Assembly (NCBI GenBank): GCA_028044295.1
Contig: JAOFSE010000011.1
Location: 890 to 64,889 of the forward strand
Direction: 5' to 3'
DNA: 64,000 bases
Origin: Sulfurimonas sp.
Lineage (GTDB): Bacteria; Campylobacterota; Campylobacteria; Campylobacterales; Sulfurimonadaceae
The translations under genes were made by a program, and so were the position numbers. The notes under the pieces are model-generated. The model saw only the letters and a program-made list of their open reading frames with translations. It searched no databases and was not told where the DNA came from. Of the stretch, positions 4,716-61,445 are shown one piece after another; the first letter of the stretch is position 1, and the number at the start of each line of letters is the position of its first letter.

Positions 4716-4739
4716 GATATACTAATTCTACATGTAGAG

Positions 4740-6701
4740 TTAAATTATTCTATCACTTCCACCGTCTATAGCTACTTGTGAGCCAGTAGTTTTTGAAAAT
4801 GGTTTTCCTGCCATTGCACATACTAATTCTGCAACATCACTTGAACAGATTTCAGTTTTTAGGACATTGTTAGTTTTGTACTCTTGGACTGAAATTCCAT
4901 GAGCTTTTGCACGGTTAGCTAAAACCTCATCAGTCCAGATAGCTGTGTCAAAAACAGCATGAGGATGAAGAGTGTTTACGCGTACTCCAAACTCTCCTAG
5001 TTCAAGAGCTGCTATGCGAGCTAGTTGCGTCTGTCCAGCTTTTGCAACCGAGTAAGCAGCAGCTCCTTTACCTGGTGCTGGAAAGTTTTTAGAAGCTACC
5101 ATAACTATAGCCGAGTCAATTCCCAGTTTCAAAAATGGTGCAGTCTCTTTTATAAGCTTTTGATGTGAAGTAAGATTTATATCCATACTTCTTTGCCAGT
5201 TCTCATCACTTAAAGAGTCTAGATTTTCACTAGGTGTAAATATACCAGCATTTGAAACTACTATATCTATCCCACCAAAACTCTTCACCGCGATAGCTAC
5301 AGCTTCTTGTATATCTTCGCAACATGTAAGATCACATTTTACACCTATCATGTCAGGTTTATTAAAAATGTTTGTTATTTCAGGATTGATATCAAGTGCT
5401 ACTACAGCAGCTCCGCGAGCATTTAACATCTTAGCTATTGCAAGACCGATTCCACTAGCAGCTCCAGTCACTACTGCAATCTTACCGTTAAACTCAGGTG
5501 CACTTCCAGCTTTTTTCAGCTTTGCCTGCTCTAGTGACCAGTACTCAACTTCAAATATATTAGCAGCACTAAGTGCTTTATAGCCACCAAGTTTCTCAGC
5601 TCTTAAAATAGCCTCAAATGTATGATCATTTATATCTTTAATGATATTTGCTTCTTTAGCATTTTTACCAAAAGAGAGAGTTCCACTGTTTTTTAGTATT
5701 GCAAAGTTTGGCGCTGGATTTAGAAGAGTTTCATTTGCTTTATTATCTTCAAAATACTGTTTATAATCTTTTATATAAGACTCTAAATCTGCATTGAAGT
5801 CACTCCCAAAAATTGCAGGAGTTCTTTTAGTTCTTATAACATGGTCAGGTGTAAGTGGACCTCTCGTTGCAATTGTGTCTACATCTGCTTGTGAGAAATT
5901 AACTGCTTCATCACTATCATTTAATATAGATATAGTTGCATGACCTTTTACTTCTGAGATTTTAGCTCTTATTTGTGCTAAGTTCATTAGGTCTACATGT
6001 AGCTCTTGTTTTTGAACATGTAGAGATGCTCCCTTGTCTGCTAAGTACTTCTCAGCCCTGTCTACAAGCTCTATAGTTTTCTCATAAGATTTTTTAGCAT
6101 CATCATTAAAAGTAAAAAGACCATGATTCATAAGAACCATACCTTCTAACTTAGTCCAATCAACATCTCTAGTCATATCATAGATTAGTTTTGCAAGAAC
6201 AAAGCCTGGCATAATGTAAGGGATAATGAGAACTTTATCACCATAAAGCTCTTTTATTTTATCTTCTCCACCCTCTGTATTTGTGATAGTTACAACAGCA
6301 TCAGTATGAGTATGGTCAACAAATTTAAAAGGAATAATTGCATGAAGGATAGCTTCAACAGAAGGGTTTGGAGCTGATGGATTTGTCATAGCAAGTCTTT
6401 GGTACTTAACCATATCTGGATCATTAAGTTCTTTTAGTTCTGCCATCTTTAAAAGCATTTCCATCTTAACAGGAGCAAATCCTTCTCCTTCTATAGTAGC
6501 TAAGTCCCAACCACTACCCTTTACCAGTAGGATGTCTTCCGTATCACCAAAAAGATTAGTTGCAGTAGACTTTACAGATGTATTTCCACCACCATGTAAA
6601 ACTAGAGACGCGTCACGTCCTAGTAGTCGCGATGTATATACTCTTAAATCTAAATCTGTTTTAAACTCTTTTGCTTCATTGTCTTGCCATAAACTTGTCA
6701 T
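4740..6701 (-). CDS. bifunctional class II aldolase / short-chain dehydrogenase (RhaD-SDR, YuxG-like fusion)
   Basis: aldolase motifs GGGNTSVK, SVE, HTH, NHG; SDR motifs TGAASGIG, NAG, YSVAK. Confidence 0.9.
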   Translation of the reverse strand: MTSLWQDNEAKEFKTDLDLRVYTSRLLGRDASLVLHGGGNTSVKSTATNLFGDTEDILLVKGSGWDLATIEGEGFAPVKMEMLLKMAELKELNDPDMVKYQRLAMTNPSAPNPSVEAILHAIIPFKFVDHTHTDAVVTITNTEGGEDKIKELYGDKVLIIPYIMPGFVLAKLIYDMTRDVDWTKLEGMVLMNHGLFTFNDDAKKSYEKTIELVDRAEKYLADKGASLHVQKQELHVDLMNLAQIRAKISEVKGHATISILNDSDEAVNFSQADVDTIATRGPLTPDHVIRTKRTPAIFGSDFNADLESYIKDYKQYFEDNKANETLLNPAPNFAILKNSGTLSFGKNAKEANIIKDINDHTFEAILRAEKLGGYKALSAANIFEVEYWSLEQAKLKKAGSAPEFNGKIAVVTGAASGIGLAIAKMLNARGAAVVALDINPEITNIFNKPDMIGVKCDLTCCEDIQEAVAIAVKSFGGIDIVVSNAGIFTPSENLDSLSDENWQRSMDINLTSHQKLIKETAPFLKLGIDSAIVMVASKNFPAPGKGAAAYSVAKAGQTQLARIAALELGEFGVRVNTLHPHAVFDTAIWTDEVLANRAKAHGISVQEYKTNNVLKTEICSSDVAELVCAMAGKPFSKTTGSQVAIDGGSDRII

Positions 6702-6705
6702 ACTA

Positions 6706-7776
6706 TTAGCCTCTAAATTTTTCTTGAATTTTATCGAAGTCTGCCTCGCAAACTCCTTTGTTTGTAATAAGTCCAGTTATTAACCTAGCTGGTGTTACAT
6801 CAAACCCATAATTAATAGCCGGTGAGTCTTTTGGAGTTATAAGAACTTCTCGTACAACTCCATCACTATCTACACCTCTCATATACTTAACCTCATCTTC
6901 ACTTCTTAACTCAATTGGTATCTCTTTTACACCATCTCTTATATCAAAGTCAAAAGTAGAAGCTGGAATAGCTACATAAAAAGGCACATCATTGTCATCA
7001 GCAGCTAATGCCTTTAAATAAGTTCCTATCTTGTTTGCTACATCACCATTAGCCGATACTCTATCAGCTCCAACTATTACCATATCTACTTCACCACTTT
7101 GCATTAGATGTCCACCAGTATTGTCAGCTATGATAGTATGATTTACACCACTTTGAGTGAGTTCCCAAGCAGTAAGAGATGCACCTTGGTTTCTAGGACG
7201 AGTCTCATCAACCCATACATGTACATCTATTCCACGGCGAAGTGCTTCATAGATAGGAGCGAGTGCAGTTCCTTCATCTATAACAGCTAACCATCCAGCA
7301 TTACAATGCGTTAAAATATTTATCTTCTTCTTATTTTTTTCTACCAATATACGCTCAATAATATTACATCCGTACTCGGCTATTTTTTGACTTTCTAAAG
7401 CCTCGTCATTATTAAGTTTTATCGCATATAGCTTTGAATCATTTACTAAATCAGTTGAATCCTTTAAAAGCTCCAACATTTTATCAACTGCCCACATAAG
7501 ATTTACTGCTGTTGGACGAGACTCACGAATAAGTAAAGCTTTTTCCTTTAACTTTTCATAGTCATCATCAACTTCCATAGACGCTATGTATATTCCAAAA
7601 GCAGCAACACTTCCTATAACTCCAGCACCACGCACTGTCATATCTTGTATTGCAGTTGCAACTTCTTGTGTAGTTTTTAAAACCTTCGTCTTATACTCAA
7701 ACGGTAGTTTAGTCTGATCTATTACTTCTAATAAACCATCATCATTTAACCATAAAGCTCTATATTTACCTTGCAC
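6706..7776 (-). CDS. mtnA: S-methyl-5-thioribose-1-phosphate isomerase
   Basis: DQTKLP, VRGAG, RPTAVNL, THCNAG, ETRP, GADR, NKIGTY. Confidence 0.95.
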   Translation of the reverse strand: MQGKYRALWLNDDGLLEVIDQTKLPFEYKTKVLKTTQEVATAIQDMTVRGAGVIGSVAAFGIYIASMEVDDDYEKLKEKALLIRESRPTAVNLMWAVDKMLELLKDSTDLVNDSKLYAIKLNNDEALESQKIAEYGCNIIERILVEKNKKKINILTHCNAGWLAVIDEGTALAPIYEALRRGIDVHVWVDETRPRNQGASLTAWELTQSGVNHTIIADNTGGHLMQSGEVDMVIVGADRVSANGDVANKIGTYLKALAADDNDVPFYVAIPASTFDFDIRDGVKEIPIELRSEDEVKYMRGVDSDGVVREVLITPKDSPAINYGFDVTPARLITGLITNKGVCEADFDKIQEKFRG

Positions 7777-8992
7777 TTTTTATAATCTCCAATATCTCAT
7801 CAGTATTCTCAATGCGCTCATAATTCATAACAAACTCTCTTGCAATTCTAAGTGCCATAGCTTCAGCTTCACGTCTTAGAGTTATATCGTTTATACCTCT
7901 AATCTCCTCAACTCCCGCAACACCATAAATTCGTCTCGCTATCTTACAACCAGCAAAACCTACACTGTCTTTGAGAATATTCTTAACAAAATTATTTTTA
8001 TAAGTATCTAATGTTTCAGAATCTAAGTATCCATCTACTAAAAGTGCTGTCTCTTTACTCTCTGCCCAAAATTCTAAGAACTTTTCACTAAATTTTTCTA
8101 GAGTATCTTTTATTACATGTAGAAGCCATTTTTGAAACTCTTCATCTTTTGTAACAATGGAGTGATGTATATAGTTATTTACAAGATTAGCTAGTAATGC
8201 TCCAACATCAAAACCAAATGGTCCAACAAAAGCGAACTCTGGATCAATCACATAAGTCTCATCACTATTTATCATAATAGAGCCTGTATGTAAATCTCCA
8301 TGTAATAATGCATCACTTTGTGTCATGAATGTATACTTTAATCCTAAAACTTTTGCCTTAAACTTTCTATCTGCAAAAAGTTTTTGAGCGTTTTCGTTTG
8401 ATTCTACATTTGCATTATCATTTGTTTCATGTTCCATAAAAGCAAAACTAAAAACCAAATCTTCAGTAAGCTTACACAGTTCAACATTTTGATTAAACTT
8501 TGCCATCAAGTCTCTTTTATCTACACTACTTAGAGATAATGAAGATGTGTAAAAGAGTGTGGCTGCCATGTATGTAGATATGTGTTCTGAGAAGTTTTCG
8601 TACTTGACTCTGTTAATAAGTCCTTCACGCATAATAATATGATTGGACAAATACTCCATAGCAACAAGACTCATCTCTTCACTAGAGTAATATACACGAG
8701 GTACAAAATTTGGAAATATAGAGTAAAACTTATCTAATGCTCTTATCTCATAAGTCATTCTCTCTCGAGAGAGTGGAAACTCTTCACCAACACATCTTAG
8801 ATATGGAACAGCCTGCTTTACTATCATAGATTTTTCTGGGTTATCAATGAGACTTACTAGATAAACAAAATTGAGATTTCCATCGCCAATCTCTTTAGCC
8901 TCTATTTCCTCTGACTCAAAAAAGTTCTTAATCTCTTTGATCTCTAGCAGATACTCAATTACACTGTTTTTATCTAATACTTTGTAGTCCAT
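7766..8992 (-). CDS. mtnK: S-methyl-5-thioribose kinase
   Basis: EIGDGNLNFV, VKQAVPY, LLHGDLHTGS, IDPEFAFVGPFGFDVG. Confidence 0.95.
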   Translation of the reverse strand: MDYKVLDKNSVIEYLLEIKEIKNFFESEEIEAKEIGDGNLNFVYLVSLIDNPEKSMIVKQAVPYLRCVGEEFPLSRERMTYEIRALDKFYSIFPNFVPRVYYSSEEMSLVAMEYLSNHIIMREGLINRVKYENFSEHISTYMAATLFYTSSLSLSSVDKRDLMAKFNQNVELCKLTEDLVFSFAFMEHETNDNANVESNENAQKLFADRKFKAKVLGLKYTFMTQSDALLHGDLHTGSIMINSDETYVIDPEFAFVGPFGFDVGALLANLVNNYIHHSIVTKDEEFQKWLLHVIKDTLEKFSEKFLEFWAESKETALLVDGYLDSETLDTYKNNFVKNILKDSVGFAGCKIARRIYGVAGVEEIRGINDITLRREAEAMALRIAREFVMNYERIENTDEILEIIKSAR

Positions 8993-9906: not shown

Positions 9907-11121
9907 TTAAACCTTAGATTTTTGTATCTGATCAACCATCTTTACAACAACCAAATCAGAAGTCACATTTATGGATGTTCTTGCCATATCTAAAATTCTA
10001 TCAACTGCAACTATTAATGCGATGTACTCTACTGGAAGACCTATTTGGTTCAGTATTACTACCATCATCACAAGAGATGCACTAGGAAGTGCTGCAACAC
10101 CAACACTCAGTGCGACAACCGTAATCCCTAGTAGAACTTGATCCATAAAACTAAGGTCCACTCCAGCTAAATGAGAGATATATAAAACAGCTATTGTAAG
10201 ATAAGCTGCCGTTCCATCCATAGATACAGTTGCACCTAGTGGAAGAACAAATGAAGCATGCTTTTTACTCACTCCGCCTGCTTCTTCCACGATACGCATA
10301 GATACAGGAAGTGTAGCTGCACTTGATGCTGTGGAAAATGCCATAATAGGGGCTTCACGGACATCTGATATATACTTATATGGATTTATTCTTCCTATAA
10401 GTCCTAAGACTGTTGGGAGTGTAACAAAGGCGTGAATTACTAAAACTGTGATAACCATAAGCACATATTTCCATAATCCTAAAACCACGTCTATACCCTG
10501 GTCTGCTATAACATAAGATATGAGAGAGAATACACCAATTGGTGTCAGTTTTATAATCCACTCTGCCATAGTTAGCATAGCGTTTGTGACTCCCGTAAAG
10601 AACTCTAACATCAAAGCTTGTCTATCTACATGTAGATGCATAGAAGCAATCGCAAAAAGAATGGCAAAAACTATAATCTGCATCATAGCACCATCTGATA
10701 ATGAAGCAAAAATATTTGTCGGAATGAAACTAAGTATCATAGCCTGAAGTGAAAAAGGTGCAATAGCTGAAGCCTTCGCATACTCCAAACCCTCAGATGA
10801 TACAGCTTCACCTATCGGAGCAATATTCATAGCTATTATTGCCAAAAGTACAGCTAAAGCTGTAGTAAGAAGATAGAGTCCTATAGTTCTAAGACCTATA
10901 GTTTTTAAATCGTTAAGACTTCCCAACCCCATGATAGCAATATAAATACTTGAGAAAACAAGAGGAACAACTAACATTTTTAAAAAGCTTATAAAGATTT
11001 GGCCAATGACCTGTTGTTTTAGAGCTAATTCTGGTAAAAAACTACCAAATAATACTCCAAAAATAATTCCTAAAATAACTAGAGTATTTGTAGTGGAGTA
11101 CTTTTTGAAAGTATCAATCAT
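9907..11121 (-). CDS. dicarboxylate/amino acid:cation symporter (DAACS)
   Basis: AFSTASSAATLP, LPLGATVSMDG, AVDRILDMARTSINV. Confidence 0.95.
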   Translation of the reverse strand: MIDTFKKYSTTNTLVILGIIFGVLFGSFLPELALKQQVIGQIFISFLKMLVVPLVFSSIYIAIMGLGSLNDLKTIGLRTIGLYLLTTALAVLLAIIAMNIAPIGEAVSSEGLEYAKASAIAPFSLQAMILSFIPTNIFASLSDGAMMQIIVFAILFAIASMHLHVDRQALMLEFFTGVTNAMLTMAEWIIKLTPIGVFSLISYVIADQGIDVVLGLWKYVLMVITVLVIHAFVTLPTVLGLIGRINPYKYISDVREAPIMAFSTASSAATLPVSMRIVEEAGGVSKKHASFVLPLGATVSMDGTAAYLTIAVLYISHLAGVDLSFMDQVLLGITVVALSVGVAALPSASLVMMVVILNQIGLPVEYIALIVAVDRILDMARTSINVTSDLVVVKMVDQIQKSKV

Positions 11122-14969: not shown

Positions 14970-15590
14970 TTAAATTCGTCCATCTACCAATTTGATTGTA
15001 CTCGTAGCATACTCTTGAAGTTTCATATCATGTGAGGCTACAACCACTGTTGTTCCTTTGGTAAAACTACGACGAAGTATCTCATATACGAGTTGAGAGT
15101 TAGTAGAGTCTAAACTTCCCGTAGGTTCATCTGCAAAAATAATTTTAGGGTTATTAATAAGTGCGCGGGCAATTGCAACCCTTTGTCTCTCTCCTCCTGA
15201 AATCTCATTTGGATATTTATCTGATAAGTCTAGTATGCCAAGCTCTTCGAGCAAAGAGTTAATCTTTGTCTTTTTATCTTCTAATGCAGCCAAAGCGATA
15301 TTATCATACACACTAAGATAGTTTATGAGATAGTGAAACTGGAAAACAAAACCAATGTTTTTTTGACGGTATATATCAATATTTTTATATCTACATGTAG
15401 AAATATTTTCTCTACGGACTTCTCCAGAACTTGGTTGTAAAAGAGTTGAAAGAATTGATAGCAAAGTTGATTTTCCACTACCACTATCTCCACTCAAAAA
15501 AACAAACTCACCCTCTTTAATCTTAAATGATAGGTTATGAAGAACTTGTTCAGATCCATAACTATGTGAAACGTTTGTTACTTCTATCAT
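14970..15590 (-). CDS. ABC transporter ATP-binding protein (LolD/MacB type)
   Basis: GDSGSGKS, IGFVFQ, ISGGERQR, ADEPTG, ASHD. Confidence 0.95.
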   Translation of the reverse strand: MIEVTNVSHSYGSEQVLHNLSFKIKEGEFVFLSGDSGSGKSTLLSILSTLLQPSSGEVRRENISTCRYKNIDIYRQKNIGFVFQFHYLINYLSVYDNIALAALEDKKTKINSLLEELGILDLSDKYPNEISGGERQRVAIARALINNPKIIFADEPTGSLDSTNSQLVYEILRRSFTKGTTVVVASHDMKLQEYATSTIKLVDGRI

Positions 15591-23725: not shown

Positions 23726-24552
23726 TGACAACCAAGAGCATAAATTTTTCAAAATTCTCCTCTTTTAAAATTGGAGATACTATTGATGTTTTAGTTCTAG
23801 ATGATTGTAAAACAATTCCAAAAGACTACTATCTCATTGGTTCATGTAACAACGTACTCATAGGTACTCAACCTCCTACTCTTATTAAGCTAGATAAAAA
23901 ATATGATTACATAAAAGTAGAAAACAATACCCTAAAAGTTGGTGGGGCTACACCATCAGGAAAAATTGCCTCTTTTTGTAAAAAGCATGACATTGGTAAC
24001 TTTGAATTTGTATCTCACCTTCCTGGGACTCTTGGTGGATTAGTGTACATGAATGCTGGACTTAAAGAGTATGAGATATTTAACAACCTCATTAGTATTT
24101 CTACATGTAGAGGTGAATTACTCAAAGATGAGATTGAATATGGGTACAGATTTACAAACATATCTACACCTATTTTAGAAGCTACATTTACTCTTACATG
24201 TAAGTTTGATATAGATAGAGTAGAGATGTTTAAAAACATGCGTTCAAACCAACCATCAACTCCTAGTGCAGGTAGCTGTTTTAAAAATCCAAAAGGTGAT
24301 TATGCGGGTCGTCTTATAGAAGAAGTAGGTCTTAAAGGGGTTATGAAAGGTAACATGTGTTTTAGCGAAGAACACGCAAACTTTCTAGTAAATAATGGAA
24401 ATGGGAATTTCGAAGATGCTGTCTTTTTAATACAAGAAGCTCAGAGAAAAGTTTATGAAAAATTTGGTGTTTGGTTAGAGTGTGAAGTAGCTGTTTTAGA
24501 TGTTAGATATATGGGAGAGGATTCACCTCTACTAAATCCATATAATAAATAA
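23725..24552 (+). CDS. murB: UDP-N-acetylenolpyruvoylglucosamine reductase
   Basis: LPGTLGGLVYMNAG, QPSTPSAGSCFKNP, SEEHANFLVN. Confidence 0.95.
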   Translation: MTTKSINFSKFSSFKIGDTIDVLVLDDCKTIPKDYYLIGSCNNVLIGTQPPTLIKLDKKYDYIKVENNTLKVGGATPSGKIASFCKKHDIGNFEFVSHLPGTLGGLVYMNAGLKEYEIFNNLISISTCRGELLKDEIEYGYRFTNISTPILEATFTLTCKFDIDRVEMFKNMRSNQPSTPSAGSCFKNPKGDYAGRLIEEVGLKGVMKGNMCFSEEHANFLVNNGNGNFEDAVFLIQEAQRKVYEKFGVWLECEVAVLDVRYMGEDSPLLNPYNK

Positions 24553-25573: not shown

Positions 25574-26818
<1,245 letters not shown>

Positions 26819-26960: not shown

Positions 26961-27464
26961 ATGTACAATTTTACTAAACAAAATGATGATACTAAAACAC
27001 TTTTACATGTAGAGCTAACTAAGGCTGCAGAGTCTATAGGTGGGTTAAACTTTTTACTCATTCTTCTTGAGTCTATGAAAGAAAAAAAACCTAATCCTTT
27101 AATGTTTAAAGGATGTAAGATTGACTCTAAGGAAGCAGTCATAACATGGAATAAAATAGTTTTTAAGGATAAACTAGATGTTTTAGAAGACGTTATAAGA
27201 ACACATAAAGACGCTGAGTCTTATGATATAAACGTGCTAGAAGCTGATAGTGATAAAAAGAAAAAGAAAATTTTAAATATGGCAAAAGCCTTAGCGCCAA
27301 TAGAGTTTAATGTAAAACCAATCAACAAAGAAAATGGCTCTGGTTTTAGTTTTAAAATTTTCGACTCAGTGGAAAATGGAGAAGCTAAACTAAGCCCTCT
27401 TTTTGTGGCAATGTTTTTTTGCTCAACTGAGTATATTAAAAAAGCTATAAAGTATAGTGCTTAA
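26961..27464 (+). CDS. hypothetical protein, 167 aa
   Basis: ORF with AGGA SD; no motif recognised. Confidence 0.8.
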   Translation: MYNFTKQNDDTKTLLHVELTKAAESIGGLNFLLILLESMKEKKPNPLMFKGCKIDSKEAVITWNKIVFKDKLDVLEDVIRTHKDAESYDINVLEADSDKKKKKILNMAKALAPIEFNVKPINKENGSGFSFKIFDSVENGEAKLSPLFVAMFFCSTEYIKKAIKYSA

Positions 27465-29208: not shown

Positions 29209-30468
29209 ATGGCTCAAACAATAACTGAAAAAATATTCTCAGAGCACGTTGGCAAAGAGGTTTTTGCAGGTGAAATTATCCGCTCAAATATTGATATGGT
29301 TATAGGAAATGACATTACAACTCCTATCTCTATTTCTGCTTTTAATCTTAGTGGTGCAACAAAACTTGCAAATCCAGATGGATTTTCTATAGTACTTGAC
29401 CACTTCATTCCAGCTAAAGATATTGCATCTGCGAATCAAGCAAAAATATCTCGTGAATTTGCAAAAAAACATAACATGAAAAACTTTTTTGATGAAAAAG
29501 ACATGGGAATAGAGCACGCTCTTTTACCAGAAAAAGGTCTTATTGTTCCTGGTGATGTTATCATCGGTGCAGATTCTCATACATGTACTCATGGTGCTCT
29601 TGGAGCATTCTCAACTGGTATGGGTTCAACGGACCTTGCTTTTGCAATGATAACTGGTGGTAACTGGTTTAAAGTTCCTGAGTCTATCAAAGTAGTTCTA
29701 AGTGGAAAACCAGGTAAATATACAACTGGTAAAGATATTATCTTAGAAATCATTCGCCTAATTGGTGTTGATGGTGCACTTTACAAAGCTTTAGAGTTCA
29801 CAGGTAGTACTATTGCTCATTTAACAATGGATGATAGATTTTCTATGTGTAACATGGCTATCGAGGCTGGTGCAAAAAATGGAATTGTTGCATATGATGA
29901 TGTTACTAAAGAATTCCTTTCTGACAAAGATTTAGCACGTGAACCTAAGATTCACTACTCAGATGAAGATGCTGAGTATGCACAAATTTTAGAGATAGAT
30001 GTAGCTAACCTTGACCCTGTTATTGCTTACCCATTCTTACCATCAAATGGCCACTCTGTAAATCAAGCTGTAAAAGATCATATTAAAGTAGATCAAGCGT
30101 TTATAGGAAGTTGTACAAATGGTAGACTGAGTGATTTAAAAACTGCTGCTGAGATTTTAGATGGTAAAAAAGTTCATGAGGACGTTCGTCTAATTGTAAC
30201 TCCAGGTACTCAAAAAATTCTAAAAGAGGCATATAGACTTGGATATATGGATATCATCATCGATGCTGGTGGTGTTGTGAGTAACCCTACATGTGGCGCT
30301 TGTCTTGGTGGATATATGGGAATACTTGGTGACAATGAAGTTGCAATCTCTACTACAAACCGTAACTTTGTAGGACGTATGGGTTCAAGGTCTTCTGAAG
30401 TTTACTTAGCAAACTCAGCTGTTGCTGCCATATCTGCTCTAACAGGCTATATTACAGACCCAAGATAA
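29209..30468 (+). CDS. leuC: 3-isopropylmalate dehydratase large subunit (short, homoaconitase-like type)
   Basis: GADSHTCTHG, FIGSCTNGR, PTCGACLG, STTNRNF; real start MAQTITEK at 29209. Confidence 0.92.
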   Translation: MAQTITEKIFSEHVGKEVFAGEIIRSNIDMVIGNDITTPISISAFNLSGATKLANPDGFSIVLDHFIPAKDIASANQAKISREFAKKHNMKNFFDEKDMGIEHALLPEKGLIVPGDVIIGADSHTCTHGALGAFSTGMGSTDLAFAMITGGNWFKVPESIKVVLSGKPGKYTTGKDIILEIIRLIGVDGALYKALEFTGSTIAHLTMDDRFSMCNMAIEAGAKNGIVAYDDVTKEFLSDKDLAREPKIHYSDEDAEYAQILEIDVANLDPVIAYPFLPSNGHSVNQAVKDHIKVDQAFIGSCTNGRLSDLKTAAEILDGKKVHEDVRLIVTPGTQKILKEAYRLGYMDIIIDAGGVVSNPTCGACLGGYMGILGDNEVAISTTNRNFVGRMGSRSSEVYLANSAVAAISALTGYITDPR

Positions 30469-34994: not shown

Positions 34995-36068
34995 CTAGCT
35001 ATAGTATTGTGCGACCCTATCCATTTGTGAACCCATATTTAAAAGGACCATATCCGCCACAACTAAAGCGGCCATAGCTTCACAAACTATAGTTCCTCTT
35101 ATTGCTACACATGGGTCATGTCTACCTTTAAGTGAAAAGTCCACCTCTTCATTTGTATTTGTAACAGTATGCTGTTCTTTAAATATAGAAGGGGTAGGTT
35201 TGAAGTATACATTTAAAACTATATCTTCACCATTGCTAATCCCGCCAAGTATTCCACCTGAATGATTTGTTTCAAATCCAGTTGATCTAATCTGATCATT
35301 GTTAAAAGAGCCAAGAGAAGATGAGCTAAGTACTCCATCACCAATCTCAACAGCTTTAACAGCATTGATTCCCATCATTGCATCTGCTAGGGTTGAATCA
35401 AGTTTATAATATAGTGGTTGACCTAAACCAATAGGAGCACCTTTTATAAGAACACGAGAGACACCACCAACAGAATCATGGTCATTTTTTGCTTTTAATA
35501 TGGCCTCTTTTTGAGCCTCTTCAACACTCTCGTCAAGTGCATAAATAATACTACTTTTTGCCTTATCATAATCAAGGTTTTGAGCTTTAATACCATCAAC
35601 TTCACATATACCGCTTAAAACTTCTACATGTAGTTCTTTTAGCATTAATTTTGCTATCGCACCAGCTGCAACTCTTGCTGCTGTTTCTCTTGCACTACTT
35701 CTACCACCACCACGATAATCTCTTAGGCCATATTTGTGAAAATAGGTAAAATCTGCATGACCTGGGCGGAAAACATCCTTGATATTTGAGTAATCTTTTG
35801 ACTTTTGATTTGTGTTGTATATAACCATTGCAATAGGAGTACCAGTACTCAATCCTTCAAAAACACCTGACAATATCTCTACCTTGTCAGCTTCTTTTCT
35901 TGCAGTTTCAAACTCACTCTTGCCAGGTTTCCTACGGTCAAGCTCACTTTGAATAAATTCTTCATCGATCTTTAAACCAGCAGGTACCCCATCTAAAACA
36001 CAACCAATAGCTGTACCATGAGACTCTCCAAATGTGGAAAACCTTAACTTTTGTCCAAAACTATTCAT
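34995..36068 (-). CDS. aroC: chorismate synthase
   Basis: [28 protein letters not shown]. Confidence 0.99.
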
Positions 36069-38201: not shown

Positions 38202-38668
38202 TATTTGTACACCACAATTCCGTAATCATTTTTCAAATTATAAAATGTAGAGTCTGCTGTAATCTCAAGCTCTTTAATCTTACCAAGCTGGACTATAGAG
38301 TTTTTATTTACTTTAATCCCAAACTCTGTAAAAAACTTCTTTATGTTTACAAACTTCACATCTTCTACGAATTTATATTCAAACTCTTTGTAGAGTTTCA
38401 TCTTCTCATATGAAAATATATGTTCATTTACATGTAGTCTATCTGAAGCGTATTTTATTGGTAAATGTCCTGAGAGATCCGTCAAAATATTCTCAACATG
38501 CTCATGCTTCTGGGGTAGTGTATTTTTTTGGATAAAAAGATATTTGTTATTTAGTTTGAGGTTTGGTGTATTTTTCCAGTACTTATATGCCGGATTTGAC
38601 ACACCTAGTTTCGAAGAGACTTCTCTCCATAACCAGTAAGAGTTAAGAGTGTTTGGTAATTGCGACAT
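38201..38668 (-). CDS. hypothetical protein, 155 aa
   Basis: ORF overlapping the TPR gene start by 1 nt. Confidence 0.8.
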   Translation of the reverse strand: MSQLPNTLNSYWLWREVSSKLGVSNPAYKYWKNTPNLKLNNKYLFIQKNTLPQKHEHVENILTDLSGHLPIKYASDRLHVNEHIFSYEKMKLYKEFEYKFVEDVKFVNIKKFFTEFGIKVNKNSIVQLGKIKELEITADSTFYNLKNDYGIVVYK

Positions 38669-39818: not shown

Positions 39819-42800
39819 CTATTTTACTACTATTTTTAGCTCTGTTTTAGCCCATTTTTCATCATTTTCTTCAGACACTAAAACATCTTTAGCAATTATT
39901 CTACTAGGATCGATCTGTTTATCTACTACCAAATAAGTTCTAATACCATTTGCCCTTCCTTGTGCAAGTTCTTGTAACTCTTCTAATGATACTATCTGAG
40001 TGGAGGTACATCTTACTAGAAGTTCTTTACGGTATTCAGAATCAAACAGATCATCATCATCTTCATATCTTTTTTCAAATTCATCTTTTAAAGCATCAGA
40101 AATATCACTTCCAACTGATTCTTCATATATATCCTCAAGTATATCAACTGTCAAAATTGCTTCATCACTTCTTTTTATAACCTCATCAGTTAACTTATTA
40201 AGCTGTATAGCTTTTTTATCAAGTTCAGCATCATATGATGAAAGAATATCTAAAGAGAGTTTTTGTTTCTTTACTAGTATCTTAGCAAGGTTATCAAGTT
40301 TTTCTCTCTGCGGAGGGAGTATAATATACTCTGATGGCTCAAAGTCCACAAACTTCAATTCATCCCCATCAATACCCATAGCAGCACCAAGAAAGTTAAA
40401 TGGAGAGGTAACAGCTTTAACAATTAGATTTGCAAATGTTTTTAATACCAATGAACCATATTTAAAATCGGGCTCATCCATATTTCCTTCTACTGGCATA
40501 TCAATATCAATTACACCTTCACTATCTTCTAATAATGCTATAGCAAATCCTAAAGGGAGTGCCGTAATATTTTCATCTTCGATAGTATCTCCAAGTTCCA
40601 TCTTTTTAATAACTACACTATTGCTACCAAGGAGCTCAGAATTATGTATTTTATATCCTAAGTCTAAAAAAAGTTTTCCGGATTCTATCTTATGCCCAGC
40701 AAATTGTGCACTGTAACCACTGTAAGAGTCTAAGCCTAAGTTTCTAAAACTAACTCCTATATCTGTATATGATTTAATATCAGAAGCTTCTATACTACCT
40801 TTGATTTTTGTAGAACCATACTTATCTATTTCACCATCTATATCTATATAGCTAACTTCTCCCTTAGTGTTAGATATAGCGTATACATCTCCATTTAAAT
40901 CATGTATAGATGTTTTAAACTGAAGTGGTAAAGAGTAATCTGCAAATATTGCTGCACCGTTTGATACATGTAATTGCATTATTTTAAGTGGGAATGGTTC
41001 ACCTTTATCTATAGTGCTATTATTATCGGATTCTTTAGTCTTTTTCTCATCACTAGTAGTTTTAGAGAGTTGAGCTAAATTCATCTGTTTGTTTTTATCT
41101 ATCTGTGCATTCACATAAAAGGCATCTAAATTAATCTTATCGATAAATAAACTACCTGGAAATAGATCTAGAGTAAATGATTTTAACTCTGTCTTAGAAA
41201 AAGTAAGAAGTCTATCACTGTTTCTACTGTCCATCAGTTCAAATTCTTCTAACTTGAGACCACCAGTTACATGTAAGTCTGGTTGCTTACTACTTTTAGA
41301 GTATGAAAGATTACTATTTAAACTAAAAAAACCATCTACTAATGCGAGATGCATACTTTCTTGTAGATATGGTGTGATCTCTTTTAAAGAAACTCTATCA
41401 ATTGTAAAAGTTCCTTTTTGTTGTAAAGGAGTGTGTCTTACAGTACCTTTTGAGTTAACGGTACCACCTCTGTTTACTCTTATGGTAGCATCGTAATCAA
41501 GCCAACTATTTTTCGATGAGTCAATGTTATAAGCATTAATATCTATGTTATCTAACCTACTTATTGTTTTGTCTTGAATACTCTCATCATTAAAATTAAT
41601 CTCCGCAGAAGATAGAGAAACTTTACCCAACTTAACACTAAATGGTTTTTCTTCAGAGGCATCTTTTTGAGACTCCACAGAAGATTTCGACTCCTTAGAC
41701 TCTTTAGACACCATAAGTTTGTTGATATTCATATCACCTGTTTTATCTTTTCTAAGATATATTCCCAGACCATTTAAATCTATAGCTGATACGTGTAGAT
41801 CTTTTGTTTTTGTATCTACATTAATATCATCTATTTTAAAGTTTTTAAATCCAAGTAATTTTTCATTATCTGTTTGTGATGTAAATAAAAAATTATTTAG
41901 TTCAAAATCAACATTATTAACATTTACATAGTTAGTAGCATTTTCTTCACTGCTAGATGATATATTAAGATCAAGATGTGTATTCATACTACCAACTATG
42001 AGACTATATTTATAAGAATTTAATCGCTTGTTTTGATTAGATTTTACATTGTTTATATAATCCAATAAATCTATGTTGCCATCTTCATCAATACTAAAAT
42101 CTACTAAAAGGTTTTTAAGACTGATACCATCTACATGTATATCTTTTTGAAAAGGTTTTATACTTGCGTTTTGAACTTTAAATGACTGTAAATTTAATAT
42201 ATCTATATTTTTGTTTTTTGGTTTAAGCCTCAAGTCTGCCAAATCGATCTCTAAATTATCTATTGAAGTAGCATTTAAATCATTCGTATTAACTCTATAA
42301 TCTGCATATAGAGAAAACTTTCCATTTGCAACTTCTATACCTAACTCATCTTGAACATATCTCTCATGGTTATATAGTTTGTTAAGTTTAAAATCTATGC
42401 TACCCTCAAGATTAAGTGGTTCTAGACCTAGTATATTTGTTTTAATATCAATCTTGCCACCATTACCTAAGTTAGAGTAAAATCTAAGTTCTGCTCCACG
42501 AGACGTAAAATCATCAGTATCAATGTCTTTTAGAATAAAAGTTATATCTTTTATGGATGTATGGAATTTATTTAGTTTTGTATTGTCTGTATATGTAAAG
42601 ATACCTTCTTCTACAGCAAGTTCATCTATTATTATCCGTGGAAGTTTTGAAGGAGTTTCTTCTTCTGTTGGTTTTACTACTTCATCTGATTCTTTTAAAA
42701 TTGTTGCTAAATTAAATACTTTATCTTTGTTTTGTTCAAGTAAAATTTGGGGACTAGATAAGAGAACTTTTTTTACATTAATCGTTCCATTATATAAATT

Positions 42801-48196: not shown

Positions 48197-48625
48197 CTAT
48201 AACGACTTAGTAGTTGTCCAGATTCCATGTAAGTTACATCCTGATCTTGCTGTAAGAACCTTAGCATTATCTAATTTTACAGAAAAAGAAGTATATCCAC
48301 GAGAAATCTCAGCTTCTAATGTATTTTTACCAACTAATTTACCATCTACATGTAGCTCGATAAAATCTATCCAATGATCTGGTGTACTTGGATGCATAAT
48401 TCCATCTTGACCAACATTGATATTTATTTGTGTATAACCTTTTGAGTCTTTTTCACCAATAGTGATGTCCGGAGAATGCTTTTTCTCACCCTTAGTCATA
48501 TTGTTTGTATCTTCAGGCTTCATCTCCATTCTGTTCATAAATGGTTCATTTCCACCTGCTTCTGCTCCTACTGCTGTAACTAAAGCTGTAATACCAGCTA
48601 CTTTTATTGCGTCTCTTCTATTCAT
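48197..48625 (-). CDS. Tat-exported superoxide reductase (1Fe-SOR/neelaredoxin type)
   Basis: RRDAIK Tat signal with AEA; EKKH.P, HP....HWI, CNLHG ligands. Confidence 0.88.
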   Translation of the reverse strand: MNRRDAIKVAGITALVTAVGAEAGGNEPFMNRMEMKPEDTNNMTKGEKKHSPDITIGEKDSKGYTQININVGQDGIMHPSTPDHWIDFIELHVDGKLVGKNTLEAEISRGYTSFSVKLDNAKVLTARSGCNLHGIWTTTKSL

Positions 48626-48681: not shown

Positions 48682-50187
48682 CTATCTTCTTCTATAGCTT
48701 AATGCTTCAAGTATATGTGATTTATCTATTATCTCTAAATTATCTATATCTGCAATAGTACGAGATACCTTTTGAATTTTTTTGATACTTCGAAAACTAA
48801 GAGAGAAATTCATAGTAGCTTTGTCTAGTGTAGCTTTAGCTTCATCACTCATGATACAAAATTTTTCAATATCTTTATCATTTAGTTTTGCAGTAAAGTT
48901 CTTTTGCCCTCTTTTTTTAATAATATGATGAACATCTATAACTTTTTGATGCATATCTTTAGAGCTAGATGTAGACTTATCATCAATGCTTACACTTTGC
49001 ATTGTAACACTCAAGTCAATCCTATCAAGAAATGGGTCTGAGAGTCTATTTTTATATTTACTAATTTCTAGTTCATTACATCTACACTCTTTAGATTCAT
49101 CTAACAAGTTACCACAAGGGCATGGGTTCATAGCCCCAATGAAAAGAAAGTCTGCAGGGTACTCAACTTTTGAGTTAACACGTGAAATTTTTATCCTTGC
49201 ATCTTGAAGCGGTTCACGTAAAGCTTCAAGAACAGACTTTGAAAAGTGGGGTAGCTCATCAAAAAACAATATTCCCCCATTAGCTAAACCTACTTCACCG
49301 ATTTTTGCCTTATGACTTCCACCACCAAATATAGAGGCTGATGATGATGTATGATGTGGTGAACAAAAGTTACGTAGTGGTTTAAATTCTGGCTCTTTAC
49401 CTTCAAGTGAATCTAACTTTGCTATATCTAGAATTTCACTTTTATTCAGAGGAGGTAAAATATAACGAATTCTCTGAGCTATCATACTTTTACCACATCC
49501 AGGACTACCTTCTAAAAGTATATTATGAAATCCACATGCAGAAATCAATGCTGCTCGTTTAGCAATTGTTTGTCCCTTAACATCAATAAAGTCATCATCA
49601 TACTTAGTGTTAACATAGTATTTTTGATCAAGAATATAACTAGGTGCAGTAAAAGAACTCTCCGAAACATTTGGTTTAGCGCTCTCTTGTGTCTTCAAAA
49701 TCTCTATAGCCTCTTTTAAACTCTTTACTCCATAGAACTCAACATTTGGAATCTTTGAAAGCTTATCAAGACTTACGAATGGAACTATAGCTTTTTTTAG
49801 TATTCCTTGATTTGCCAAAGAAAGTAGTAATGGGTAAAGTTGATGATTCTCTTTTACTGTCCCATCAAGTCCAAGTTCACCAAATACAAACCAATCAGAA
49901 AAATCATCTTCTGAAGTGTTAAGAGCTATCATTAACGCGATACTCAAGTCAAAATGGCTTCCATCTTTTTTCAAATCACTTGGACTGAGAGACAGCGTTA
50001 TTCTCTTAGGAGGGAACTTAAACTCATTAGATAAAAGTGCAGATTTAACACGTTCCTTCGATTCATTTATAGATAAAGAAGTCATCCCAATAACTGAAAA
50101 AGATGGAAGACCTTTGGTTAATGTCGATTCTACATGTACAGTTTTTGCATCCAAACCTTCATACGTGGCACAAGATACTTTTTTCAT
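48682..50187 (-). CDS. comM: YifB/ComM Mg-chelatase-like AAA+ ATPase
   Basis: FPPKRITLSLSPSDLKKDGSHFDL, GSPGCGKS, FFDELP, AMNPCPCG, LDRID. Confidence 0.9.
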   Translation of the reverse strand: MKKVSCATYEGLDAKTVHVESTLTKGLPSFSVIGMTSLSINESKERVKSALLSNEFKFPPKRITLSLSPSDLKKDGSHFDLSIALMIALNTSEDDFSDWFVFGELGLDGTVKENHQLYPLLLSLANQGILKKAIVPFVSLDKLSKIPNVEFYGVKSLKEAIEILKTQESAKPNVSESSFTAPSYILDQKYYVNTKYDDDFIDVKGQTIAKRAALISACGFHNILLEGSPGCGKSMIAQRIRYILPPLNKSEILDIAKLDSLEGKEPEFKPLRNFCSPHHTSSSASIFGGGSHKAKIGEVGLANGGILFFDELPHFSKSVLEALREPLQDARIKISRVNSKVEYPADFLFIGAMNPCPCGNLLDESKECRCNELEISKYKNRLSDPFLDRIDLSVTMQSVSIDDKSTSSSKDMHQKVIDVHHIIKKRGQKNFTAKLNDKDIEKFCIMSDEAKATLDKATMNFSLSFRSIKKIQKVSRTIADIDNLEIIDKSHILEALSYRRR

Positions 50188-55860: not shown

Positions 55861-57193
55861 TTAAATCTTTTTGGAAAAACTCTACCATATCTTCTACATG
55901 TAGATTCATCTCTTTTTCATCTTTACACTCTAGTAGTACTCTAAGTTTATTCTCTGTTCCAGAGTAACGAATCAGATGACGTATACCTTTATCGTCTAAA
56001 TTTTTCAGCTTGCTATCAAGACCAGGTATATTTTCTAGAGGTTTTTTATTTTTAATATTTATATTTACTAATTTTTGTGGATAAAGCTTAAAAGGACGAA
56101 GAGCTTCTGAAGCTTTTTTATCTTGTCTTATAAGTAATGCTAAAGTCTGTAGTGCAGACACAAGTCCATCACCAGTTTTAGCAAAGTCACTTACTATAAC
56201 ATGACCACTTTGCTCACCACCAAAGTTAATACCCTCATTTTTCATAATCTCTAAAACATTTTTATCCCCAACGTCCGAACGAAGTAGTTTTATACCTTTT
56301 GATGCCATATAGTCATCTAGTCCTTGATTACTCATAACTGTAGCTACAATAGCTCCACCTTGGAGTTTGCCTTCATCATTCATATGAGCACCAAGAGCTC
56401 CAATTAATTGATCACCATCAACTACTTCACCCTTTTCATCAACAACAACCAGTCTATCAGCATCACCATCAAGTGCTATTCCTAAATCTGCTCTATATTT
56501 TATTACACTATCGCGTAAGTCTTTAGTATGAAGAGCTCCACAATTTTCATTTATATTGAATCCATCTGGTTTATCATGTAGCACAACTACTTCAGCACCA
56601 AGCTCTTCTAAAACAGTTGGGCCTACTATATATCCTGCACCATTAGCGGTATCTAACACTATACGCATACCCTGAAGTGATAAGTCTCTCGGAAATGAAT
56701 TTTTTAGTTGAACTATATATCTACCAATTACGTCATCAATTCTTTTTGCCTGACCAATATTTTTTGCACGAGTCTGTGCTTCTATCAACTTGTTTTCATC
56801 TTTAATGATTGCTTCTATCTCTTCTTCAACACTATGAGATAGCTTATTACCACATCCATCAAAAAATTTAATTCCATTGTCTTCAAAAGAATTATGTGAT
56901 GCACTAATCATAATTCCAGCATCACAACGCATATTTTCAGTGATATATGCAATAGCGGGAGTTGGCATTGGACCAATTTCAACTACATCATAACCAATAG
57001 CAGTTAAACCACTTACAATTGCATTTTCAATCATATACCCACTTCTACGAGTATCTTTACCTATCAAAATTTTATTTGTTTTTGAGTGAGCTTTAAAGTA
57101 GATTCCAGCTGCCATAGCAACTTTCATAGCTAAACCAGCTGTTAAAAATGTTCCAGCTTCACCTCTTACACCATCAGTACCAAATAGTTTCAT
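55853..57193 (-). CDS. glmM: phosphoglucosamine mutase
   Basis: [33 protein letters not shown]. Confidence 0.98.
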
Positions 57194-59203: not shown

Positions 59204-59944
59204 TTATTCCCAATTTGTACTAAAAGTATTTTTTACCTTACCTTTAAAAGTAATAGTTTTTTCATTCATTCCTAAGTATAGTGTTTCACCACTTGTTGGA
59301 TAAACTTCAATACTTCCATTAACTTTGCCCTCTGTCAAAGCTCTATAATAACAAGCTGCCATACCCGTTCCACAAGCTAATGTTTCAGCTTCAACACCGC
59401 GTTCATAAGTTCTTACATGTAGATTTTTACCATCTACAGATGTAATGTTTACATTTGCATTGTATTTATAACGAAGTTCGCGTAATTCTTCTATATCAAA
59501 CTCTTTGATATTATCTGTGATATGGACTAAATGAGGAACCCCAGTGTTGATAAGCCACCATGATTTTGAATTAAATTCTATACTTTTATCTATAATCTCA
59601 GGTGGAGTTAATTCACTCTGAACAATATCACCATCTACTTCGGCACTTATAACCCCAGCTTCAGTTAAAAAACTCATATTTTTTGGAGCCAAATCATACT
59701 TATATGCGTAATGAGCACAAGCTCTACTCCCATTTCCACACATTTCGGCCGTACTTCCATCAGAATTATAAAATTGCCACTCGAAATCATATTCATTATG
59801 GGGAATAACTACTATAAGACCATCGGCGCCAACCCCATTTTGTCTATGACATAAATCTTTGGCTAATTCTGACCTGTCTTCTTTAATATCAGAATGAAAA
59901 ATAACAAAATCATTACCGCTTGCACTGTATTTTTCTATTTTCAT
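59204..59944 (-). CDS. dapF: diaminopimelate epimerase
   Basis: SGNDF, GVGADG, EMCGNG, NTGVPH, RTYERGVE.ETLACGTG. Confidence 0.98.
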   Translation of the reverse strand: MKIEKYSASGNDFVIFHSDIKEDRSELAKDLCHRQNGVGADGLIVVIPHNEYDFEWQFYNSDGSTAEMCGNGSRACAHYAYKYDLAPKNMSFLTEAGVISAEVDGDIVQSELTPPEIIDKSIEFNSKSWWLINTGVPHLVHITDNIKEFDIEELRELRYKYNANVNITSVDGKNLHVRTYERGVEAETLACGTGMAACYYRALTEGKVNGSIEVYPTSGETLYLGMNEKTITFKGKVKNTFSTNWE

Positions 59945-60534: not shown

Positions 60535-61079
60535 TAGTTTTTAATGATGCCTAAGTACTCTTTTCTTATGTAGTTACCCATTGCAAAAGCAGCTGGATGA
60601 ACATCACAGTTATAGAAACTCAAACCATCAAGTAAATCAGTACGGTGTAGGTTAATATCAGCAGTTGGATGATACTCTTTTGAAGCTAAAATAGCAGTTG
60701 AACCATTACCTAAGTTGTATGGCATAATTACTTTAAAGTATTGACCTAGAATTTTCATTAACTTCTTATTTGATTCAGTATCATCTAAATCTTTATGAGT
60801 TGTAGAAAGTTGTCCGTCATCTTTAATGATACGGTTGATTTGTGAAGCAAGAACTGCATCTATTTCCATTTCAGATATGATTACATCGTATGCATCATCA
60901 CCTAAAGTACTAACCTCTTCAAGTTTACATGAAGCTACATGTAGAGAACTTTTACTATGTCTTTGTGCTTCACTCTTAAGTAAATCAGCGTTATCGCTTA
61001 TGATTAAGATGTCTTTAGCTGTTTTATTTGTACAAACTGGTACATGTACCATCATTTCTGCGTAGATAAAGTCTTTCAT
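60534..61079 (-). CDS. truncated spermidine-synthase-like (SpeE-fold) protein
   Basis: FIYAEMMVHVP, ASKEYHPTAD, FYNCDVH.AAF; lacks the N-terminal domain and GGGDG loop. Confidence 0.75.
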   Translation of the reverse strand: MKDFIYAEMMVHVPVCTNKTAKDILIISDNADLLKSEAQRHSKSSLHVASCKLEEVSTLGDDAYDVIISEMEIDAVLASQINRIIKDDGQLSTTHKDLDDTESNKKLMKILGQYFKVIMPYNLGNGSTAILASKEYHPTADINLHRTDLLDGLSFYNCDVHPAAFAMGNYIRKEYLGIIKN

Positions 61080-61265
61080 TCTTGTAAATTCCTTTTAAAT
61101 TTCGTCAATTGTCTTTTATAAAAGCGATTTTATCATATTTGGATTAAATAGGTTTAAAAACCTTAAACATTTCATAGATTTAAGTCCTAATTGATATTTA
61201 ATTATAATATTAACTTAATATTGATATAATTACATAAAATATAAGTCTATTTCATAGGATAAATC

Positions 61266-61445
61266 ATGAATTACAATAAAATAAAGTCTACATGTAGAGT
61301 TGTTAGAATAGCTGCAGGTTTAGCACTAATCACTACTGGTTTTATAACTGGTAATGCTTGGTTTTACTTGGGTTTAGCACCTTTAATAGCAGGTATAGTA
61401 AACTTTTGTCCATTATGTATTATCACAAAAAAGTGTACAGTATAA
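61266..61445 (+). CDS. DUF2892 / YgaP-like small membrane protein, 59 aa (not in the ORF track)
   Basis: AGGA SD; R..RIAAG...WFYLGLAPLIAGIVNFCPLC. Confidence 0.85.
   Translation: MNYNKIKSTCRVVRIAAGLALITTGFITGNAWFYLGLAPLIAGIVNFCPLCIITKKCTV

Follow-up and report, generated by a model that had tools for sequence, protein, structure and literature searches.

A palindromic octamer kept as a genome-wide signature word in Sulfurimonas: a candidate self-DNA tag

The stretch of DNA analysed here (the window, 64,000 nucleotides) corresponds to C3:890-64889 of a Sulfurimonas metagenome-assembled genome (MAG; 1.91 Mb in 34 contigs, 94% complete, 32.7% G+C; referred to as G000). It carries many copies of the octamer TACATGTA, a perfect palindrome and its own reverse complement, which in part of the cases extends to the decamer CTACATGTAG or to the full 12-mer TCTACATGTAGA. 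Our data show that this octamer is a genome-wide signature word which is kept at the DNA level, where it overrides codon choice and alters proteins. Of several possible explanations, the one that we place first, with a probability of about 0.4, is that the word serves as a self-DNA tag for uptake and/or recombination.

An initial annotation of the window had reported 11 decamers (starts 4728, 5993, 10626, 15391, 24101, 31891, 35624, 48346, 55894, 60935 and 61288), and this exact count was confirmed; shuffles of the window that preserve its dinucleotides average 0.03 decamers and reach one at most. As also described there, seven of the decamers widen to the 12-mer, and ten lie inside coding sequences (CDSs), where translation gives L-H-V-(D/E/A) seven times and S-T-C-R three times; the exception, at 4728, lies in the 24-bp spacer of a convergent gene pair. 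The decamers are a subset of a larger signal, the octamer itself having 25 copies in the window.

Abundance and form of the word

In G000, TACATGTA is the commonest of all 8-mers, with 694 copies against about 50 expected from an order-3 Markov model (13.8x), or one copy per 2.8 kb. The decamer occurs 193 times where 2.3 copies are expected, and the 12-mer occurs 103 times against an expectation of 0.3 (about 340x). A control palindrome of equal composition, ATGTACAT, has 52 copies in the same genome.

The logo of all copies reads T-Y-TACATGTA-R-A, with C (53%) or T (35%) at position -1 and G (52%) or A (36%) at position +8, and no conservation is seen in it outside about 12 bp. This flank preference is symmetric, though coding constraints differ on the two sides. 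TCTACATGTAGA is the optimum form in the C/G dialect of G000, one of two dialects described below. The 24 one-mismatch variants, when pooled, are present 1499 times against 1478 expected by the order-3 Markov model (observed/expected, O/E, 1.01), and compared with word-poor relatives (below 100 copies) they are raised about 1.3-1.4x at most when the higher G+C of the relatives is allowed for. The tetramer CATG is under-represented (O/E 0.73), and ACATGT is at expectation outside the octamer. As the shorter cores and the one-mismatch variants are at or below Markov expectation, the recognised unit is the exact octamer plus its flanks.

The density of copies is even across all large contigs of G000, and ten samples taken around the complete chromosome of a relative (G015) hold between 3 and 11 copies per 20 kb. 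Spacing is slightly over-dispersed (coefficient of variation, CV, 1.13). Within genes, the position of copies is approximately flat over deciles and a bit lower in the first and the last. Copies cluster in some genes, as only 456 genes have at least one copy where 512 would be expected from a Poisson distribution. We note in passing that the ComEC gene (C12:105791-107002(-), 403 aa) bears 4 copies of the word, and that C9:7468-8691 and C9:10000-11001 bear 5-6 copies each.

Effects on codon choice and proteins

By the simple long open reading frame (ORF) calls that were used for G000, 631 of the 694 copies (91%) are located in CDSs. They are read as xTA-CAT-GTA in 409 cases, as xxT-ACA-TGT-Axx in 200 and as TAC-ATG-TAx in 22, the last being a frame in which a stop codon results if R follows the word. 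The reading frames stay open at the word copies. Codon choice is bent toward the word, as a shuffle of synonymous codons that leaves all proteins unchanged yields only 158 +/- 13 CDS copies, compared to the 631 observed.

The effect on the proteins is equally apparent from tripeptide counts. The tripeptide LHV is found 386 times against 73 expected (5.3x), with 345 of the 386 spelled YTACATGTA, while the reversed tripeptide VHL has 43 occurrences, or 0.6x expectation. Similarly, STC occurs 105 times against 20 expected (5.1x). The Leu codon that precedes CATGTA is CTA in 221 and TTA in 124 cases, whereas elsewhere TTA (35%) is preferred over CTA (19%).

The initial annotation had proposed that the copies fall at variable positions of unrelated proteins, so that protein selection is an unlikely cause, and this agrees with the orthologues: eight sites of the window could be aligned, and at six of them the word-poor relatives hold other residues (LVT/LLT, LDI/LGI, LRV/LQV or a variable x-x-M, for example). 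At the remaining two, (L/V)HV is conserved at the protein level and differently spelled in the relatives. By the codon shuffle and by these orthologues, neither of the refuting outcomes named in the initial annotation was obtained. Taken over the 1.9-Mb genome, about 350 Leu-His-Val and about 200 Thr-Cys codings are imposed by the word. A proteome reshaped to this extent has consequences for annotation, codon-usage models and MAG binning, and possibly for genetic tools for sulfur oxidisers.

Retention of sites and their placement

Conservation between species was assessed with 200 reciprocal-best orthologues of G000 and 400 kb of a word-rich sister species (G102), which have a median protein identity of 80% and a third-position identity of 54%. 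Sites common to both number 33, corresponding to 38% of the 87 sites of G000 and 66% of the 50 sites of G102. For comparison, ordinary 8-mers in the same frames are identical in 12% of cases, and in 21% where the amino acids are identical. Of the G000 sites that are not shared, 20 face a sequence in G102 that matches at 6/8 or 7/8 bases, and 24 face one that matches at 4/8 or fewer, which is background-like. From the sharing with G102 and these match classes, some sites appear to be old and retained, and others to have been written recently at variable positions. Copies are sparsest, at 0.17/kb, in the genes with the strongest conservation (>90% identity).

Two long stretches of G000, both at contig ends, are free of the word. 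C6:1-34374 (28.5% G+C; gap P ~0.003) carries a polysaccharide-synthesis cluster with ManC and glycosyltransferases, and C12:167259-187667 (20.4 kb, 29.2% G+C) encodes a pump of the AcrB type together with four lysine-rich ORFans that have no Pfam match. Both are probably recently acquired DNA.

The intergenic copies are placed preferentially at the 3' ends of genes. Convergent spacers contain 20 copies in 10.9 kb (1.8/kb), whereas divergent spacers, with a total of 29.1 kb, contain 7 (0.24/kb), and in tandem spacers most copies are found 5-40 bp past the upstream stop codon. There are 29 close pairs (<50 bp), 14 of them intergenic, including pairs with sites 11-25 bp apart. As the word equals its own reverse complement, close pairs form hairpins, and the intergenic ones fold to hairpins of 12-14 bp with -12 to -19 kcal/mol.

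Distribution and dialects among relatives

In a census of 194 Sulfurimonas species genomes, 36 are word-rich (at least 100 copies, ranging from 100-850), and the rest contain 3-90 copies; the count is graded, and that of the control word is 10-70. Independent assemblies of dozens of species bear the same word. In a class-wide sample of 371 genomes of Campylobacteria, enrichment is seen only in two families, f1, in Sulfurimonas and in genus g20, and f20, where all 12 genomes of genus g40 (up to 1727 copies), the genera g56 and g58 and one of three g42 genomes are enriched; none was seen in the 12 other families sampled.

Two flank dialects are sharply separate within the one genus. In the C/G dialect (G000, G043, G053, G163, G197, G091 and G102), the decamer CTACATGTAG makes up 19-39% of the octamers. 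In the T/A dialect (G015, G041, G057, G106, G110, G127 and G200), which comprises genomes equally rich in the word, it makes up 0.1-2%. The logo of G015, from a 200-kb sample, is TTACATGTAA, with 74% T at position -1 despite the higher G+C (38%) of this genome.

The nearest relatives of G000 by MutS identity (G102, G091, G053 and G043, 90-92%) are all rich and all of the C/G dialect. In a tree of the 1163-aa protein encoded in the window at 44697-48188(+), the loci from rich genomes are scattered, with 9 changes for 9 rich rows; this is a tree of a single gene, with richness judged from samples of 4-23 kb. From the MutS relatives and the scattered rows in the tree, the trait holds together within small clades and has a patchy occurrence over the genus. 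As a side observation, the tree places the window with the word-poor loci L100, L102 and L109 (98% support), and the MutS protein with HNH motif (MutS-HNH, see below), the D12 methylase and the 653-aa aldolase/short-chain dehydrogenase fusion of G000 are nearest to those of the rich genomes G102 and G091. This discord may be due to gene recombination or transfer, or to an effect of genome sampling.

Methyltransferase, repair and competence genes

G000 encodes two DNA methyltransferases, an orphan N6-methyladenine (m6A) enzyme of the D12 family and a 5-methylcytosine (m5C) enzyme; N6_N4 and N6_Mtase enzymes had no match in this genome. The gene of the D12 orphan (C34:26078-27070(-), equal to L081:1378-2373) comes after a histidine kinase gene and overlaps tsaD at the start of the latter. 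As a family member with 69% identity is named 'Modification methylase NlaIII' in a source database, the orphan is likely to be CATG-specific, and the central CATG of the word is probably m6A-methylated by this enzyme in the clade of G000. Among the rich genomes, 17 of 36 have an orthologue, compared with 15 of 158 among the poor ones (odds ratio 8.5; p = 9e-7 by Fisher's test, uncorrected for phylogeny). Orthologues occur mostly in genomes of the C/G dialect, and tsaD synteny is alike in rich and poor genomes. Four rich complete genomes, G041, G015, G057 and G053, lack the orphan. In G041 and G015, N6_N4 and m5C enzymes are also absent, and only Type I/IIG-type enzymes were found; G057 has no D12, N6_N4 or m5C enzyme except for two distant m5C-like matches, the listed one of which contains a stop codon. 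The NlaIII-like orphan as the driver of the word is therefore neither necessary nor sufficient, and a partial association remains. The m5C motifs published for S. denitrificans (PMC8112702) are CGCG, CCNGG, GATC and CCGG, and CATG is not among them.

The m5C enzyme (322 aa) and a 370-aa nuclease with an NgoFVII-type B3-like DNA-binding domain are encoded between glyQ and mutY (C23:52403-56314, equal to L082). Close orthologues of the m5C enzyme are found almost solely in word-poor congeners, among which they are scattered. A process of m5C methylation with very-short-patch repair was rejected for this occurrence in poor genomes, for the lack of m5C enzymes in G041 and G015, and for the lack of Vsr in G000. 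None of the N6_N4, Type I/IIG or Eco57I-type methylases is common to the rich genomes. The word as a Type II restriction-modification (R-M) recognition site was also rejected, as it is enriched 14-fold and the only R-M pair found, the m5C enzyme with the NgoFVII-like nuclease, does not track it. As the rich complete genomes share no methylase, shared Type II methylation is not what keeps the word.

Vsr and MutL were not found in the 94%-complete G000. There is a MutS of 1010 aa (C32:92693-95725(-)) with a MutS_I domain and a C-terminal HNH motif, resembling the MutS7-type fusion, which, judged by its domains, could be a single-polypeptide mismatch repair enzyme. It is present in 182 of the 194 Sulfurimonas genomes (76-92% identity), with no match in the rich G085; as a core protein of the genus, found in poor genomes as well, it does not discriminate. 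The same applies to the competence genes, with ComEC in 183 and the secretin in 185 of the 194 genomes, every rich complete genome included, and equally in word-poor species.

The initial annotation had considered a highly iterated palindrome driven by methylation and repair around a CATG or ACATGT core and had suggested looking for an orphan methyltransferase. Such an orphan does exist in G000 but is not common to the rich genomes. The driver itself finds no support: neither methyltransferase of G000 tracks the word over the 194 genomes, neither of the cores is enriched outside the octamer, and G000 has yielded neither Vsr nor MutL.

A self-DNA tag and its alternatives

The self-DNA tag is placed first because the anatomy of the word matches that of the DNA uptake sequences (DUS) of Neisseriaceae and the uptake signal sequences (USS) of Pasteurellaceae with respect to frames, proteome effects, islands, 3'-end pairs and dialects, and because of the proposals made for the cyanobacterial palindrome HIP1. 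We infer that a sequence-specific factor binding double-stranded DNA, probably a symmetric dimer, would read the exact 8-12 bp word, and that word-bearing alleles would be fixed more often than word-lacking ones. The word would favour the uptake and/or recombination of same-species DNA in natural transformation, which amounts to a biased-uptake drive of the DUS/USS kind. Copies would accumulate where the sequence is tolerant, that is in the two stop-free frames and at variable protein positions, as well as just past the 3' ends of genes, where pairs would form hairpins. Recently acquired islands would be without the word, and clades would differ in the flanks that are preferred by the putative reader. 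The NlaIII-like enzyme may modulate recognition of the word, for which it would be neither necessary nor sufficient. In its wider form, the proposal would be that Sulfurimonadaceae and a second family of Campylobacteria use a palindromic tag with clade-specific dialects, read by a putative dimeric receptor or recombination factor in natural transformation, with methylation not required; this we consider tentative and somewhat doubtful.

Several points weigh against the self-DNA tag. The word is a perfect palindrome, a form typical of the sites of R-M enzymes and dimeric regulators, while the known DUS and USS lack such symmetry. Uptake-drive models and the genomes with USS or DUS show a clear halo of one-mismatch variants, of which the word has no excess by the Markov model (O/E 1.01) and one of about 1.3-1.4x at most by comparison with poor relatives. 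The hairpin pairs have no U-tract and are thus unlike classical terminators. None of the tested genes (methylases, MutS-HNH, ComEC, secretin) separates rich from poor genomes, the word has no known receptor, and a literature search gave no report of natural transformation in Sulfurimonas.

A methylation-linked palindrome of the Elhai type, where an orphan methylase marks CATG and methyl-directed repair or replication creates and keeps the word, has a precedent in HIP1 (PMC4390886); the repair or replication function could be mismatch repair via MutS-HNH or a SeqA-like sequestration. The word has CATG at its centre, G000 possesses the D12 orphan with its NlaIII-named relative and its association with rich genomes (17/36 against 15/158, mostly C/G dialect), and MutS-HNH is core to the genus with no MutL found, so that a strand signal would be needed. 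We nevertheless regard this explanation as rather unlikely. Rich complete genomes do without the D12 enzyme (G041, G015, G057 and G053) and in two cases also without N6_N4 and m5C enzymes (G041 and G015), while 15 word-poor genomes hold the methylase, some in the same tsaD synteny; CATG is depleted (O/E 0.73) and ACATGT outside the octamer is at expectation; spacing is over-dispersed (CV 1.13), where a repair signal would predict even spacing; and MutS-HNH also occurs in poor genomes and has no match in the rich G085, with no Vsr in G000. The word might also be the by-product of a solitary or domesticated nuclease, nickase or recombinase together with gene conversion (a selfish 'word drive'), or a defence self-mark. 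In favour of this, 24 of the 87 G000 sites match G102 at no more than 4/8 bases, which looks like written patches and not like single mutations, and within the genus the word has a graded, patchy distribution. With protein identity at about 80%, however, stepwise change at unconstrained positions also gives multi-base differences, there is no candidate gene, and restriction recognition sites are normally avoided and not enriched, which makes such a by-product quite improbable.

Alternatively, each copy could be under selection as the target of a global regulator or of an abundant protein that is nucleoid-associated or organises the chromosome. This would fit the palindromic 12-bp site with its strict core, which suits a homodimer, the conservation of copies between species and the pairs spaced by 11-25 bp. 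Such a binding site is very unlikely given that the copies number about 700, fall within CDSs in 91% of cases and occupy variable positions of the proteins there, are rarest in divergent (promoter) spacers and are dispensed with by 158 of 194 congeners. The even density, over the contigs as in the ten samples of G015, is also unlike that of matS, of the binding sites of Noc (NBS) and SlmA (SBS), or of parS, a class with tens of copies in one chromosome region and mostly outside constrained sequence; sites of this type, which the initial annotation had mentioned, are unlikely accordingly. Mobile repeats of the repetitive extragenic palindrome (REP) or miniature inverted-repeat (MITE) type, which are longer intergenic units with flanks of their own, were rejected as well, as nothing is conserved past about 12 bp and 91% of copies are in open frames. 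We give next to no credence to the idea that composition, codon bias, protein motifs or assembly produced the word artefactually. Although G000 is a MAG of 34 contigs with an AT-rich sequence (32.7% G+C), all null models miss the observed counts by 4- to 340-fold, the control ATGTACAT reaches only 52 copies, frames are intact, and the same word recurs in independent assemblies of dozens of species. Of the initial interpretation, a DNA-level and lineage-specific process has held up, on the basis of the rewriting of codons and amino acids, the symmetric flanks, the retention of sites from one species to another and the fact that some congeners have the word and others do not; the methyltransferase-based driver and the matS/Noc/SlmA-type site have not.

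Comparison with known systems

HIP1, to which the initial annotation compared the word, proved to be the right analogy. HIP1 (GCGATCGC) and its alternate forms in cyanobacteria are palindromic octamers that rank as the top 8-mer, are more than 10-fold over-represented, are spread over coding and non-coding sequence, are conserved past the expectation from codons, and have lineage variants. The same holds for TACATGTA, which is the first-ranking 8-mer (13.8x), is found in genes and spacers, and is shared with G102 at 38-66% of sites. In both, the centre (GATC in HIP1, CATG in TACATGTA) is of the type targeted by D12 adenine methylases. There are also differences: TACATGTA is another, AT-rich word in another phylum (Campylobacterota), being neither GCGATCGC nor one of the listed alternates; HIP1 goes with two orphan methylases, whereas the TACATGTA-rich genomes share no methyltransferase; and, unlike HIP1, TACATGTA is patchy inside one genus and has flanks in distinct dialects. 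Recent work on HIP1 points to transformation: its abundance correlates with transformation-related genes (PMC13756078), and in Synechococcus PCC 7002 transformation increases up to 100-fold when HIP1 is methylated (bioRxiv 10.1101/2024.09.10.611283).

With DUS, which are read by the minor pilin ComP, and with USS, the word has in common that hundreds to thousands of exact copies of 8-12 bp are present, at a density of about one per 1-3 kb, placed in tolerant frames, with effects on the proteome, depletion in acquired DNA, close inverted pairs just past genes and clade-specific dialects. DUS and USS are, however, asymmetric words, whereas TACATGTA is palindromic with little or no one-mismatch halo, and they function in uptake, a role that is putative for the Sulfurimonas word. 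In Campylobacter jejuni, the methylated RAATTY site (CtsM), a short palindromic m6A site, discriminates self-DNA in natural transformation. This system is from the same phylum, and G000 likewise has an orphan adenine methylase with a likely target inside the word. RAATTY differs in being a degenerate hexamer that needs no enrichment, while TACATGTA is a strict octamer, enriched 14-fold, that persists in methylase-free genomes.

To our knowledge, DUS (read by the receptor ComP) and USS are the only hyper-abundant signature words for which there is an explanation, while HIP1, the oldest palindromic case, has as far as we know been without explanation for thirty years. In a search of the literature, no paper was found that gives TACATGTA as a prokaryotic repeat or that describes a word of this kind in Campylobacterota. 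The word is thus a second, independent palindromic case, in another phylum. It also represents a natural experiment in one genus, with dozens of species that have the word, about 160 without it, and carriers in two dialects, so that a reader protein should be findable by association and testable in cultured relatives. New in the present study are the split into C/G and T/A dialects, the count of the word across 194 genomes, the finding that intergenic copies lie at gene 3' ends, the negative tests of methylase, repair and competence genes, and the partial association with an NlaIII-like methylase. If the word is indeed a palindromic tag, it would be the first uptake-sequence-like system in the phylum and the first palindromic one, and would link the phenomena of HIP1 and of DUS/USS in culturable organisms.

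Copies within the window

Gene names that had been proposed for the ten genes with decamers were borne out by Pfam, with a weak match for the speE-like (spermidine-synthase-like) gene. The matches are to a class II aldolase-SDR (short-chain dehydrogenase) fusion, an SDF/DAACS symporter, an ABC ATPase, MurB, a MobA-like protein, chorismate synthase, desulfoferrodoxin, a GlmM-type mutase, the weak spermidine-synthase-like protein and a YgaP-like transmembrane protein. Coordinates are those of the window.

At its left end, an octamer at 4461..4468 (context CTTACATGTACA) is read in the rare frame TAC-ATG-TAC as Y-M-Y in the CDS at 3987-4715(+), and the intergenic 12-mer TCTACATGTAGA at 4727..4738 follows between this gene and the convergent gene at 4740-6701(-). 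The latter encodes the aldolase-SDR fusion, in which the decamer at 5993..6002 specifies E-L-H-V-D where relatives have S-[HNSY]-[VAI]. As an observation apart, this 653-aa protein has 46-60% identity to proteins from Saprospiraceae and other Bacteroidota, Zetaproteobacteria, Gammaproteobacteria of the Steroidobacter group, Verrucomicrobiota and others, suggesting that the enzyme has been exchanged widely. In the CDS at 6706-7776(-), the octamer at 7216..7223 (CATACATGTACA) encodes V-H-V, which is conserved at the protein level in 25 of 26 relatives, mostly in another spelling. The octamer at 8114..8121 (ATTACATGTAGA) encodes L-H-V in the CDS at 7766-8992(-), with LVT/LLT in relatives.

Further 12-mers are present at 10625..10636 in the SDF/DAACS symporter gene (9907-11124(-), L-H-V-D) and at 15390..15401 in the ABC ATPase gene (14970-15590(-), S-T-C-R). 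The murB gene (23722-24552(+)) contains a 12-mer at 24100..24111 (S-T-C-R) and an octamer at 24195..24202 (CTTACATGTAAG, L-T-C-K). Three octamers follow, at 26461..26468 (CTTACATGTAGA; CDS 25574-26788(-), S-T-C-K), at 27004..27011 (TTTACATGTAGA; CDS 26961-27464(+), L-H-V-E) and at 29580..29587 (CATACATGTACT; CDS 29095-30468(+), H-T-C-T). A 12-mer at 31890..31901 specifies L-H-V-E in the MobA-like gene (31636-32208(+)), and a decamer at 35624..35633 specifies the same residues in aroC (34995-36068(-)), where relatives have LDI/LGI. At 38429..38436 (TTTACATGTAGT; CDS 38201-38668(-)), LHV is conserved at the protein level in 33 of 35 relatives, and the exact word is limited to 4 loci, of which word-rich genomes contribute three.

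The CDS for a 1075-aa protein (39819-43046(-)) bears three octamers, at 40965..40972 (L-H-V-S), 41268..41275 (L-H-V-T) and 42132..42139 (I-H-V-D). The decamer at 48346..48355 lies in the desulfoferrodoxin (SOR) gene (48197-48625(-), L-H-V-D). An octamer at 50131..50138 (TCTACATGTACA) encodes V-H-V-E in the CDS at 48682-50187(-); at this site the word is also found in five other loci (four of them word-rich), in three separate parts of a single-gene tree, and most word-poor relatives show TCAACATGAACA-like words.

Toward the right end, a 12-mer at 55893..55904 encodes L-H-V-E in the gene of the GlmM-type mutase (55853-57205(-)), where relatives are variable (x-x-M), and a second copy in the form CTTACATGTAGA, at 59414..59421, encodes L-H-V-R in the CDS at 59204-59944(-), with LRV/LQV in relatives. 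The speE-like gene (60534-61079(-)) contains a decamer at 60935..60944 (L-H-V-A) and an octamer at 61041..61048 (GGTACATGTACC, V-H-V-P). The last copy, a 12-mer at 61287..61298, is read as S-T-C-R in a 59-aa ORF of the YgaP-like/DUF2892 type (61266-61445(+)).

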